Source of the DNA: Eledone cirrhosa
Lineage: Eukaryota
Length of the DNA: 64,000 bases
Assembly (NCBI GenBank): GCA_964016885.1
Contig: OZ024741.1
Coordinates: forward strand, 308,636,001-308,700,000
Direction of reading: 5' to 3'
The notes beneath the pieces are model-generated. The model searched no databases. It was given only the letters and a program-made list of their open reading frames with translations, and was not told where the DNA came from. Below, in pieces: positions 18,196-61,155 of this stretch. Position numbers and translations under genes: made by a program. How positions within the stretch are numbered: the stretch's first letter is position 1; every line of letters begins with the position of its first letter.

Positions 18196-18246
18196 ATATA
18201 TATATATATAAAGAAGAAACTAAAAGATGGTTAAAAAGGCTCCATA

Positions 18247-18316
18247 TATTTTATTATGCGGATTTCGAAAACAACATCATCCTGGGACAAAAATTGTGTT
18301 CTCATCAGATAAAATA
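18247..18316 (-). ncRNA. Minimal type I hammerhead ribozyme
   Basis: UAUUUUAU-CUGAUGA-stem II (GAAcACAA/UUGUuUUC)-GAAA-UCCGCA-UA-AUAAAAUA, with an 8-bp stem I. Confidence 0.75.
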
Positions 18317-18388
18317 AGGTAACATGATATGAGGCCTAAAAACACTTGTCAACAGGAAAGTGCTTTTAGGCCTCATATCATGTTACCT

Positions 18389-18458
18389 TATTTTATCTGA
18401 TGAGAACACAATTTTTGTCCCAGGATGATGTTGTATTCGAAATGCGCATAGTAAAATA
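18389..18458 (+). ncRNA. Minimal type I hammerhead ribozyme
   Basis: UAUUUUAU-CUGAUGA-stem II-GAAA-UGCGCA (palindromic)-UA-GUAAAAUA. Confidence 0.8.
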
Positions 18459-18606
18459 TATGGAACTTTTTTAACCATCTTTTAATTTCTTCTTTAATAT
18501 ACACTCCAGTTCTACCAACTGTTGAGTTCTACTTATCTGATATATGCATAGTTTTATTGTTCTACAATATTACTCATCTTCTACATATATATATATAGAG
18601 AGAGAG

Positions 18607-19041
18607 GTAGAACACTGGAAGGTAATATCCGTAGTGGTAGAGTACTCAGTCCAAGAGACGAGTTAGGTAGAAGTGGTAACACAGCAAGTAGTCCACCATA
18701 CCGAGAACAATTGTTTCACCTTAGTGGATCCTCTAAGGTGAAACAATTGTTCTCGGTATGGTGAACTAACTGTTGTGTTACTGCTTCTCTCTCTCTCTCT
18801 CTCTCTCTCTCTCTCTCTCTCTCTCTATATATATATATATATATATATATATATATATATATATATATATATATATATATATGTATATATATATATATAT
18901 ATATATATATATATATATATATATATATATATATATATATATATATGTGTGTGTGTATATATATATATATATATATAGCAGATCCTCTAAGGTGAAACAA
19001 TTGTTCTCAGTATGGTGGACTAACTGTTATGTTACCACTTC
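18607..19041. mobile_element. Fold-back pLTR-like element plus duplicated arm (same family as 32101-32348)
   Basis: Palindrome centred on GGATCC (18726-18731) containing GAAACAATTGTT hammerhead 3' halves; extra arm at 18978-19041. Confidence 0.75.
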
Positions 19042-19729
19042 TCTCTCTCTCTCTCTCTCTCTCTCTCTCTCTCTATATATATATATATATATATATATAT
19101 ATATATATATATATATAGCCTGGTTACGATCATCAAATATATATATATTGTCTCAGAAATATTTATGTATATGTCTAGTGTGTGTGTGGCTGGATGTGTA
19201 TCATTCCATGCATGTCAATGTGTGTGTGTGACGGTGTTGTGTAAGTAGGGTGTGTGTGTGTGTGTGTGATTTTTGTATATGTATGTATGCAGCATGATTA
19301 GTCTATGTGAGTGTGACTGTGTGTATATGTGAGTGTGTATAATAGATATCATATGTGCAATGCACATGTAATATCGATTATACACACTCACATCGTTCAT
19401 GTTATATTTGGTCTATATGTCTATATGCAGGTATGTTAATGAGTGCATCTAAGTGTGTGTGCATCTGTGTGTTTATATAATGTATGTGTACATGTTAGAG
19501 TTAGTCTGGGCATGCATGTGTTTGTGTGTGTGTGTTTATGTATGTGTTTGTCACTGTGTGTGAGTGTGCTAATATGTTAGTATGTACATACACGAGCTGA
19601 GCAAATTAAGCGAAGAGAAGAAAAGACTGATCTTGTTATATTTGAGGGGGGGTCATGTTGATCTAATATTGCCAGAAAAATATAGTAAAAAGATTGATTG
19701 CTTTCATTGAAATGAGTATATCACATAAT

Positions 19730-20167
19730 AATTGTTTCTACTTTAGGCACAAGGCCAGCAATTTGAAGGGGGGGGGGGAGTCAATTAAATCGCCCCTAGT
19801 GCATTACTGGTGTTTTATTTTATCAACCCTGTAAGAATGAAATGCAAAGCTAACCTCGCCGGGATTTGAACTCAGAACATAAAGGGCTGCAACTCTATAC
19901 CGTAAAGCATATTGTCTGACGGTCTACTGATATTACCAATCCAACCCCTCAGTATATAATGATAATATTTATAATAATTGTTTCTACTTTTGGCACAAGG
20001 CCAGAAATTACCCCAGTGCATTACTGGTACTTTATTTTATCGACCCCGTAAAGATGAAAGGCAAAGTTAACCTCGGCGGGATTTGAACTCAGAATGGCTA
20101 GGGCCGTAACTCTATGCGTCAAAGCATGGCGTCTGACCCTCTACCAATACTGCCAATCCACCACCCT
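19730..20167 (-). mobile_element. Two tandem SINE family A copies
   Basis: Family A head, core and tail on the minus strand. Confidence 0.85.
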
Positions 20168-58184: not shown

Positions 58185-58470
58185 AAAGCGTGTGGCTTAC
58201 TGTTTAAGGTATTTAGCTCACGATCATAAAGTCGTGAGTTTGATTACGGGAGTCGTGTTCTGTCCTTGAGCAAGACACTTTATTTCACGTTGCTCTAGTC
58301 CACATAGTTGATGAAAACTAGTTGCACCTATAATTCTAAGAGCCGCCACGCTGAATCTCGTTCTGAATTACGTTAAGTGCATACATGTTTGTAGATGCTC
58401 AGCCACTTGTATTTTAATTTCCATTGATAAAACAAGTGGAATACTCATCGTCAGAACCGCTGAAGGTCCT
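58185..58470 (+). mobile_element. SINE family B
   Basis: TGTCCTTGAGCAAGACACTTTATTTCACGTTGCTC core and GCTCAGCCACTTG 3' block. Confidence 0.8.
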
Positions 58471-59239
58471 ACATCGTGGTGGGTGTGTGTGTGTGTGTCC
58501 AACAATATACAAACCGAAAAAGCTACATTAGTTAAGAGAACAAGAGTTAAGAAGCCATAACATAACCCTCTTCCCCCAACATTCTACTTGAGCCAAGCCT
58601 TCAGGCTAGACAAAACATATGTCATTCAAACCGAATGAAGAGAACGGATATATATATATAAATATATATATATATATATATATATATGAATACATGAATG
58701 AAGGCAGATGAACTGGACAGATGGGAATTAGAAGATAAAAATGTGTATGTGTATGTATATATATATATATATATATATATATATATATATATATATATAT
58801 ATATATATATATATATATGTGTGTGTACTTAAATACAAGCACATAGCTACACATACATATATATATATATATATACTTAAATACAAGCACATAGCTATAC
58901 ATACATATATACATATACTTAAATACAAGCACATAGCTATACATACATATATACACACACATATATAATATATATATACTAAAATACTGCCACATAGAAA
59001 TACACACATATATATATATATATATATATATAATAGTAATAAACGAAAGATATAAACTTTATATCATCTCTATTTATTTCATTATATATCCCGAAGATGC
59101 AAAGTTTTATGTATAACATAAAGCAAAACATGTCCTCCTGAGGCAAAATACATATGAGATGTATAATTTTTTCTTCATGATATGCTGCTAGACAAACGAG
59201 CTGGAGGGATCGGTGACCACCAGGCATATATATATATAT

Positions 59240-59431
59240 GGAAAAATATATGACCCCGACGGCAGAGCTCAAGCCGTTTCGACGGCTATTTCAGTCCAGA
59301 AATAGCCGTCAAAACGGCTTGAGCTCTGCCGTCGGTGTCATACATTTTCCTATTACCCACTCTACAACCCTAAGTATTGAGTACTCTGGTGCGTTATGGT
59401 CCATCTGGTTCCTTACCACACCTCCTTCGTT
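59240..59431 (+). mobile_element. Fold-back pLTR-like element truncated inside the hammerhead
   Basis: Inverted arms 59240-59292 / 59299-59350 carrying GTCGAAACGGCTT; 3' hairpin at 59359-59382; relatives at 57180-57330 and 60955-61018. Confidence 0.75.
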
Positions 59432-59451
59432 ATATATATATATATATATAT

Positions 59452-60690
59452 AACTTTGATAACTTTGATAGGTTTCGGCCAGTATTGACCCAGGTCATGT
59501 CTAACTTAATAGCACCACCTGGCGAAGTCTTACAAATCAGTGTTTGGGCACCATGGCCCACTCGAGTTATTGTTTACGGAGGCATATCCGGGTGTAGGAG
59601 GCTTATCCGGGTTTTCTTGAAGGAATTTATCCAAAGACTTCTTGAACTTGATGGGGTCCGTCTCTGCTTTGATGTGTTTTGGTGTAATGTTAAAGAGTGC
59701 AGGGCCAATTGAGGTGAAATAATTGTGCCGTATTGTTGTTATGTGATGCGAGTGGGATTTTTGTCGTGGGCGGATAGCACGGGGCCCAAGCCTTGGGTGT
59801 ACACTAAAGGTGATGCCAACATCATTTGGGCTAAGCTGATGGAATATTTTCCACATCATACAGATAATGTAGCGCTCACGGCGACGTTGAAGAGAATAAA
59901 GTTTTGAGCTTTTCTAATCGACCCCAATAGTCAAGGCCTGTCATACCAACTATCTTTTTTGTAATTGACCTTTGGGGTGCTTCAACTTTCATGATACTTT
60001 GTTTCATGTGGGGTGACCACAGTGGACAACACTATTCAAGGTGGGGTCGGGCAAAAGTGGAGAAGAGAAGGACAACAGTGTGGATATCTCTCGACTGGAA
60101 AGTTCTGAGAATCCAGGAACACATTCTGCGGGCCATATCAACTTTGCTGTTTATATGAGTGGCCCAGCTTATATTGTTGTCCACAATTACTCCCAGGTCT
60201 CTGATGTTATTGGAAGCCACTAGAGTTTCACCCGAAGGAAGAGAGTATGGTAGTTTCACAGCATCCTTTTTTCCAAAGTGGATTAGTTCAAATTTATCCT
60301 CATTCATCTCTGCCCATTGGATAAGAGCCAGTAGGTCTGACTGAAGGCAAGTCCGGTCACCCACCTCATTGATGACCCTTTGGAGCTTGGAATCATCTGC
60401 GAAGATTCTGATGTTACTGTATTTGATGATGTCAGTAATGTCATTAATGTAGATGATGAAAAGAAGTGGGCCCAACACAGTGCCTTGTGGGACGCCACTG
60501 CGGACTTTGGCAGAGCTTGATTTTACTCCTTCGACTACAACATGCTGGGTTCTGCCTGTTAGGAAACATTTGATCCACTGTAGTAACCTTCCAGAGACAC
60601 CAACAATGGATAGTTTTTTCAGTAGAATCTTATAATCAACCCTGTCGAAGGCCTTGCTGAAATCAAGGTAGATCACATCATCAGCCGTAT
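59452..60690 (-). pseudogene. 5'-truncated CR1/L2-group LINE reverse transcriptase
   Basis: ORF 60032-60709: YLDFSKAFDRV...SGVPQGTVLGPLLFIIYIND...FADDSKL. Continues through a stop and frameshifts (YSLQRRRERY, ORF 59530-59859) to a (TATCAAAGT)2 tail. Confidence 0.93.
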
Positions 60691-60702
60691 TCCCAATTTT
60701 TG

Positions 60703-60952
60703 CTCCCAAAAGTCAGCTCAAAAGTGACACAGAGGAGACTGAGGTTAGCTGGCCACGTTCACCGACATCCAGAGTTGACATTGCACTCAGTGCTCCTGGA
60801 AGAGGAAGACCAAGGTTAACATATGTTGATGCCCTAAGGACAGACACTGGTCTGTTGGAGACGCAGGACATGGCAGTGGTAATGAGGTACAGAGACCGCT
60901 GGAGAGAACTCGTCCATGGATCTCGGGAATTTTACCCGCCCTAGAATAGAAT
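60703..60952 (+). pseudogene. RTE/RTEX-type LINE 3' fragment
   Basis: LPKVSSKVTQRRLRLAGHVHRHPE..., frameshift, GRGRPRLTYVDALRTDTG...RDRWRELV..*, short (TAGAA)2 tail. Confidence 0.75.
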
Positions 60953-61155
60953 ATATAGGAAAAAGTTTTTCCTATTACCCACTCTAACCATCTGGTTCCT
61001 TACCACACTTCCTTCGTTATATATATATATATATATATATATATATATATATATATATATATATCTATATATATATATCTATATATATCCAAACGGAACC
61101 TGAATCAATAAGGTCTAGTTTCTGGGGTATGTCACTATTTATAAAACAAACTTTG

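Follow-up and report, generated by a model that had tools for sequence, protein, structure and literature searches.

In the 64,000-nucleotide stretch of the Eledone cirrhosa genome considered here (contig OZ024741.1, positions 308,636,001 to 308,700,000; hereafter, the window), at least seven unrelated families of short fold-back repeats, labelled A–G, are found in (TA)n tracts. They are 3' stubs of Penelope-like elements (PLEs), mostly of the Hydra clade. Comparison of the inserted copies shows that Hydra-clade insertions end just 5' of either the first or the second of a tandem pair of conserved hairpins, box 1 and box 2; each box likely binds one reverse transcriptase (RT)–endonuclease on the element RNA and thus sets the start of cDNA synthesis, and we assign this reading a probability of about 0.6. 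Its fuller form is more tentative, at slightly worse than even odds: in programmed twin priming, a pair of ~25-nt boxes would load two RT–endonucleases on one RNA, each would start, at a constant distance from its box, on one of the two strands of a double-strand cut, and the spacing of the boxes would set the length of the one-sided tail.

Upstream extension of the copies led to GIY-YIG endonuclease and RT frames. Family B is the pseudo-long terminal repeat (pLTR) of a 2656-nt RT–GIY-YIG unit (seen in copy L184), whose 722-amino-acid open frame contains, as identified by motifs, an RT followed by a C-terminal GIY-YIG endonuclease in one open reading frame (ORF). A Pfam scan of the PLE proteins assigned no family; homologues of the family B protein carry PF26215, and one carries PF01541. 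By the motif criteria given in the accessible text of Craig et al. (2021, PMC8557442), family B would belong to the Hydra clade: the unit is shorter than 3 kb, with a single ORF, DKT, a CxCx5C linker, CxxC and CxH, and no CCHH, while the position of the RWK motif reads RWR. The family shows a pLTR, a partial tandem, an inverted 5'-truncated copy, and a one-sided tail, so the inverted truncated pLTR with a tail, ascribed to PLE insertions in an earlier sequence-only reading of the window, is indeed present. A Hydra-type endonuclease was also linked upstream to seven copies of family A (of 100), one of family C (L199, ~1.1 kb upstream), and one of family E; no upstream ORF or endonuclease link was found among the retrieved copies of families D and F. 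The endonuclease of family G has Cx4CxxC with internal C, C, H, H, departing from the CxCx5C/no-CCHH arrangement, and by the same published criteria this family appears to be Neptune- or Nematis-like, outside the Hydra clade.

Predicted hammerhead core words occur in families A, B, E, and J (the last from outside the window) and in copies of family D. Rfam yielded zero matches at the gathering score in L422, L119, L325, and L330, and in the window none of the 150 listed matches, of 591, lay on a box, the scan being swamped by microsatellite look-alikes of microRNA models. The read-through copy L119 has the hairpin downstream of the hammerhead core and ~220 nt upstream of the ATG start codon. 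As for the (TA)n target, a TA run follows 45 of 55 short ends and 48 of 54 long ends of the long family B copies. The host genome (3.0 Gb, rich in microsatellites) holds many identical-scoring, apparently intact open frames of 714 and 719 amino acids, pointing to at least two recently active Hydra-type families.

The strict hairpin motif, ACTC-stem-T(T)GAGT, occurs nine times in the window, compared to a mean of 0.47 and a maximum of 3 in 60 block shuffles; one of the nine, at 21526 (−), has no tail context and probably is a chance match. The sequence-only reading noticed that the inverted arms stop just short of this hairpin. Realignment and direct reading reproduced these ends within 0–6 nt, the ambiguity being due to TA microhomology with the flanking (TA)n: the arm end vs. 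the hairpin start is 18495/6 (the alignment runs to 18501) vs. 18503, 32281–32283 vs. 32288, 59348–59351 vs. 59359, 52498 vs. 52516, 60975 vs. 60981, 31621–31626 vs. 31632, and, on the minus strand, ~18670 vs. 18663. Several details need correction. The hairpin at 60981 is mostly deleted, with only its first bases left. The reach of short ends to −18 comes from the 52498 value, which is an outlier, the other family D short ends (seven) lying at −2 to −8. The lone copies at 44745 (−) and 19041 do end at the same family boundary, but the latter looks like a local duplicate of the 18727–18790 arm and not an independent insertion. In the fold-back at 26390, the arm end at 27026 and the tail to 27084 stand, but the ACTC/GAGT hairpin is missing, and the family is from a different PLE clade.

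To see where copies end genome-wide, we took 30 loci from each search (from the best 40 DNA or best 150 protein candidates) and added 80 of the best 150 endonuclease matches with wider flanks. Queries ended before the short end, except for family D. We dropped matches that had less than 84% identity, were shorter than 18 nt, or lay closer than 130 nt to a locus edge, along with ten family F loci of one tandem array; a few family B loci are present in both B sets. A family F fold-back is repeated every ~9.6 kb in a tandem segmental array at C1:348.86–348.95 Mb (L297–L300, L305–L307, L315–L318).

With short ends defined as −22 to +3 from the hairpin start, and with the box-less family G included in the totals, the 474 ends comprised 212 short, 241 long, 13 read-through, 6 further upstream, and 2 between. 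The distribution is thus sharply bimodal, as the sequence-only reading had predicted when setting this check. Short ends have modes at −5 in family B (21/24 and 46/55 in the two sets), −6 in families C (27/36) and F (10/12), and −7 in family J (12/13); in families A and E the alignment runs to 0 via TA letters, and the true short end is at about −8 to 0. Long ends have modes at +55 (D, F), +65 (B), +72 (C), +73 (J), +82 (A), and +83 (E), so that the predicted range of +35 to +66 agrees with the observed +55 to +83 only when counted from the hairpin end rather than its start. The long-ended arms run through the hairpin, 75 of 78 in family B reaching more than 30 nt 5' of it; no pile-up of 5' truncations was seen at the 3' edge of the hairpin, body-based queries under-sampling tail-only arms.

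Every end coincides with a TA or AT step. Family B makes use of a 2-nt word, while longer TA words close by are passed over in family F (11 nt at −69), family E (9 nt at −67), and family J (5 nt at −31). Therefore, it is the position relative to the boxes, not pairing strength, that picks the site. That TA microhomology with the target alone sets the ends, the hairpins serving, e.g., translation or RNA stability, fits the TA and AT steps and the location of the boxes in the 5' untranslated region (UTR) near the start codon, but seems very improbable given the unused longer words and the constant offset to the boxes across families.

The box consists of RCUC, a stem-loop of 3–5 bp, a pyrimidine bulge of 1–2 nt, GAGY, and then RCU. 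Box 1 lies ~40–80 nt 3' of the hammerhead core, and its repeat lies 46–79 nt downstream, also within the 5' UTR. Of 7999 candidates scored in a protein search, 1080 were relatives, the best 120 of these having ~37–50% identity, and a 40-protein alignment led to 77 metagenome loci. In these loci, the motif extended by RCT occurs 47 times in sense orientation (in 35 of 77 loci) and three times in antisense, with 0–3 occurrences in 20 shuffles. A covariance model built from 13 boxes gave 117 matches in 58 of the 77 loci, six of them antisense. It also recovers the window boxes at 22728, 52512, 59355, 61266, 18499, and 18635, the last two only at E ~3.5; the window box at 32288 is not among the matches listed.

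The stem of box 1 covaries. In boxes picked by sequence only, the first three pairs of the upper stem are kept in 38/39, 31/36, and 27/30 cases, and 85 of 90 cells are paired in register vs. 22 and 18 of 90 when slid; there are eight G–U vs. two C–A combinations. The pairs hold across 17 clusters with less than 55% protein identity (16/17, 16/17, and 13/15), and a tool-based count agrees.

The second copy, overlooked in the sequence-only reading, lies right past the long end. Among hammerhead-linked boxes, 30 of 48 have a second box 46–79 nt further on (start positions are loose, and one row is spurious), and this box ends 12–39 nt ahead of the start codon. In family B, it is degenerate, with a long insert, and starts 7 nt after the long end. 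For family J the positions had been predicted in advance: relative to box 1, 12 of 13 short ends are at −7, and relative to box 2, 17 of 18 long ends are at −3. In the metagenome loci, six of 16 rows end at −1 to −7 from box 1 and four at −2 to −6 from box 2 (one at a contig end), with the remaining six explained by contig ends or by similarity to hammerheads from other families. Overall, short ends lie 1–8 nt 5' of box 1, and long ends 2–7 nt 5' of box 2; hence, the "tail" is the spacing of the hairpins. The earlier suggestion that the hairpin places one priming event just 5' of itself is upheld insofar as it is the hairpin, not the best TA word, to which the short end keeps a fixed distance, but it left out the hairpin copy beyond the long end. 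The published Hydra consensus sequences (supplement of PMC8557442), inspected by eye, contain the box in four of six cases, in one of them as two copies ~61 nt apart.

The two kinds of ends are paired, another regularity missed at first. Among adjacent fold-backs with both ends classed, 111 of 113 combine a short and a long end, two are short + short (at one complex locus), and none is long + long; under independence 0.50 is expected (p about 4e-31). Of the 29 pairs listed for long family B insertions, 28 are short + long, the exception, L214, ending at +9; the L235 pair was entered with a wrong partner, the end of the true partner being likewise long. The rule holds regardless of arm orientation, and the earlier pattern of a short inverted arm and a long direct one does not hold up, since, of 28 long insertions, 10 have the short end on their longer arm (17 have the long end there, and there is one tie). 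In these ten cases, the short-ended arm is also the endonuclease-bearing one. In 60 fold-backs of families A, B, and E, the arm that extends further 5' is the short-ended one in 31 and the long-ended one in 19, while 9 have equal arms and one is unclassed, where the E sample and part of the A sample are query-biased. As either arm may reach further 5', neither is a copy of the other, and the two arms behave as separate primings, as proposed earlier, because either can carry sequence absent from the other.

This bears on a different scheme, in which a single priming is followed by snap-back self-priming and the copied-back strand halts at the hairpin as at a barrier. It is nearest to the boundary analogy of the sequence-only reading and to the self-priming idea found in the accessible part of PMC3846280. 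The arms are indeed adjacent, share variants, and often meet with small overlaps (the gap is ≤0, i.e., overlapping or abutting, in 18 of 32 fold-back centres), and some families fold at a near-constant point: in family C (window 59290–59320; L121–L150) 89 of 110 retrieved copies fold within a hammerhead-like stem, ~60 nt upstream of the box. However, a short arm longer than its partner cannot be the partner's copy, and short arms hold 0.5–1.2 kb missing from the long arm, a contradiction unless there were later deletions. Lone short-ended copies are also common, and box 2 is left unexplained, so we consider snap-back very improbable.

In target-primed reverse transcription, the 3' end of an element at the target junction marks the start of its cDNA. 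PAc, a Poseidon-clade PLE from Anolis carolinensis, was found in vitro to use two internal RNA start sites matching the tail, to cleave and extend both strands, and is predicted to dimerise (Frangieh et al., 2024, available portion of PMC11167929). Taken together, these points argue for one RT–endonuclease per box, with one target strand for each. The endonucleases would nick both strands of the (TA)n target, and each 3'-OH would pair with as little as one TA step beside a box and prime away from that box. The cDNA started at box 2 would copy through box 1 and therefore carry the tail. The two cDNAs would stop at variable lengths and be joined head to head, often via a few overlapping bases. 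That both primings occur on one RNA is less certain and would need strand displacement or a tandem or circular template.

The ends could instead be cleavage sites, with the boxes guiding the endonuclease on a longer intermediate that is cut upstream of box 1 at one side and upstream of box 2 at the opposite side. Craig et al. attribute the tail to endonuclease-mediated resolution, as a suggestion (accessible text of PMC8557442), and the D. virilis endonuclease, as cited in PMC11167929, required the tail for recognition; the TA steps at all ends are also the preferred target of the endonuclease. We nevertheless regard cleavage as unlikely, since a covarying stem that tolerates G–U points to the folded sense strand rather than double-stranded DNA, and purified PAc starts cDNA at two tail-defining RNA sites (PMC11167929, in the portion available).

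A slightly less likely possibility retains box-directed priming but assigns the two boxes to separate RNA molecules of an asymmetric complex, so that one RNA would be read from box 1 and its companion from box 2. The arms share the same region over up to 1.2 kb, and one linear RNA cannot template it twice without displacement. Of the 403 subfamily-diagnostic sites, 39 differ between the arms; the other 364 (90%) are common to both, compared to 63% for permuted partners (maximum 77%), and thus both arms derive from one source element. This much better match to the own partner than to other copies disfavours two RNAs, as does the strict one-of-each pairing, which is simpler on one RNA. The self-complementary word of the window boxes is absent from most other Hydra boxes, and no RNA dimer signal is evident. 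Dimerisation via this word was rejected, as it fits the window boxes and not the common GAGCACU form.

Returning to the proposal that each box positions one RT–endonuclease, several observations weigh against it. The ends and boxes of these elements are read from inserted DNA. The box was not seen by eye in two of the six published Hydra consensus sequences (supplement of PMC8557442). Box 2 was observed only in families B and J, the two with read-through copies among the retrieved loci, and not in A, C, D, E, or F; its upper stem shows no covariation beyond shuffles (27/39), in both own-genome cases it holds an insert of 60–90 nt, and in family J it is outside the minimum-energy fold. As hairpins, the boxes are weak and thermodynamically unremarkable (z between −1.7 and +1.2), and single-sequence folding fails to single them out. 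In the available portion of PMC11167929, PAc uses both start sites alike on both strands, and no coupling is shown. The shared arm variants could also be due to gene conversion or to the use of two RNAs from a single locus. Finally, family G pairs short and long ends in 15 of 15 cases without a box, and hence the pattern as such does not depend on the box; the pairing rule is therefore probably general to PLEs, with the box as the Hydra-clade way to mark the sites.

The inserts of box 2 (L119:1650–1750 in family B and L422:1390–1465 in family J) replace a small loop, and the former holds a tandem duplication.

PAc resembles the elements described here in its AT-rich target, in two internal RT start sites bounding an optional tail (likely here), and in an upstream hammerhead (predicted here), dispensable for insertion in PAc (available portion of PMC11167929). 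It differs in that its starts lie inside the ORF, in an AC-rich stem-loop, with a tail of 30–40 nt, whereas here they lie in the 5' UTR and the tail is ~55–90 nt; furthermore, here each site adjoins its own copy of a conserved box, with one site for each end of an insertion. No box was seen in the PAc RNA sequence given in Fig. S1 of that paper. The Hydra clade of C-terminal EN+ (endonuclease-bearing) PLEs (Craig et al., 2021) has a hammerhead, as predicted here, and shares the (TA)n target, the inverted 5'-truncated copy, and the tail at one end; the main text of PMC8557442 contains neither "hairpin" nor "stem-loop," the box being visible but undescribed in four of the six consensus sequences.

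Twin priming is familiar from L1 elements, where two target 3' ends prime on one RNA and an inversion results; the second priming there occurs at variable sites and the arms do not overlap, whereas here the sites are fixed and the arms overlap. The sequence-only reading compared the hairpin to the template boundary element (TBE) of telomerase, which lies 5' of the template and halts synthesis (accessible part of PMC5855555). There is a likeness in a structured RNA beside the copied region and an RT related to TERT, but the geometry fails: the box lies on the 3' side of the short start, and synthesis from the other site passes through it. Because long copies read through it, the box is not a telomerase-type boundary, and this analogy has to be given up. 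The position of the box is nearer to that of the Tetrahymena template recognition element, between the template and the pseudoknot.

The PLE features of the window, three further box-bearing segments among them, are listed in Table 1. In addition, the covariance model gives a decayed box-like match at 52271–52304 (+), immediately upstream of the family D stub, and two more palindromic inserts adjoin (TA)n at 20554–20700 and 45184–45283.

Table 1. PLE-derived features and box hairpins in the window (+ and −, strand).
Feature	Position	Strand	Details
Family A short-ended arm (Hydra-type PLE 3' stub)	18207..18347	−	predicted hammerhead core 18263–18308
Family A long-ended arm	18358..18586	+	hammerhead core 18397–18442; box 1 hairpin 18503–18530; tail to (TA)n
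Family B long-ended arm	18607..18733	−	box 1 at 18663–18641
Family B short-ended arm, then (TC)n(TA)n	18727..18790	+	
Second family B short arm copy, probably a local duplication	18981..19045	+	
Family E long-ended copy	22561..22817	+	hammerhead core 22627–22663; box 1 22732–22755
Family G fold-back (non-Hydra PLE without box)	26390..27084		short arm 26390–26617 (−); long arm to 27084 (+); hammerhead core 26846–26874
Family F fold-back	31340..31688		short arm 31340–31439 (−); long arm 31526–31688 (+); variant box at 31632
Family B fold-back	32099..32347		short arm from 32099 (−); long arm to 32347 (+); box 1 32288–32310
Hammerhead cores of the 32099 family B fold-back	32145–32166; 32214–32235	−; +	
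Family E lone short-ended copy	44745..44900	−	hammerhead core 44841–44801
Family D stub fold-back	52464..52567		short arm of 16 nt; long arm box 1 52516–52538, UUCG loop
Family C fold-back	59243..59430		short arm from 59243 (−); long arm box 1 59359–59385
Family C stub fold-back, box mostly deleted	60955..61018		
Family E long-ended copy	61097..61354	+	hammerhead core 61164–61201; box 1 61270–61292, GAAA loop
Family G stubs	61385..61521		include a tail-only inverted piece joined to a short-ended arm
Extra box-like hairpin	13146..13174	+	
Extra box + tail stopping at a TA run, family C relative	57261..57329	+	
Extra box (GCTC/GAGC type) + tail stopping at a TA run	52615..52678	−	

Other repeats in the window include a fragment of a non-long-terminal-repeat retrotransposon RT (Pfam RVT_1) at 59530–60712 (−), between two family C fold-backs and unrelated to PLEs, and a dispersed repeat of ~200 nt resembling a short interspersed element, with more than 15 copies (including 7926–8148, 14313–14552, 16019–16765, 19725–20196, 37657–37873, and 62341–63148). 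Copies of the 3' region of a long interspersed element at 17571–18194 and 24885–25534 are 90% identical and oppositely oriented, and long tandem arrays occupy 389–5489 (period 29 nt), 38739–41301 (24–27 nt), and 41951–43956 (24 nt). A tRNA match above the Rfam gathering score lies at 54198–54270 (+).

For the origin of inverted PLE copies with a one-sided tail, published proposals include endonuclease resolution (PMC8557442), self-priming (PMC3846280), and internal initiation (PMC11167929), as put in the accessible parts of these papers. Two-site internal initiation is thus already published (PMC11167929), while, apparently, neither the duplicated, covarying box associated with both ends nor the nearly strict one-of-each rule has been described before. 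No paper on the twin hairpin or the pairing rule was found in the literature searched, which lay outside subscription journals, Repbase reports, and figure images; the words "hairpin," "stem-loop," "tail," and "initiation" are absent from the main text, considered apart from its supplements, of a bioRxiv preprint (10.64898/2026.07.22.740005).

A covarying cis-element at a fixed distance, together with the one-of-each rule, makes the choice of PLE ends directly testable. Twin priming, if true, would explain the inverted-plus-tail architecture of PLEs and provide a portable signal for internal RT initiation. A short RNA signal able to position an RT at an internal start would be relevant to RT evolution, PLE RTs being the sister group of telomerase, and to RNA-templated genome writing.

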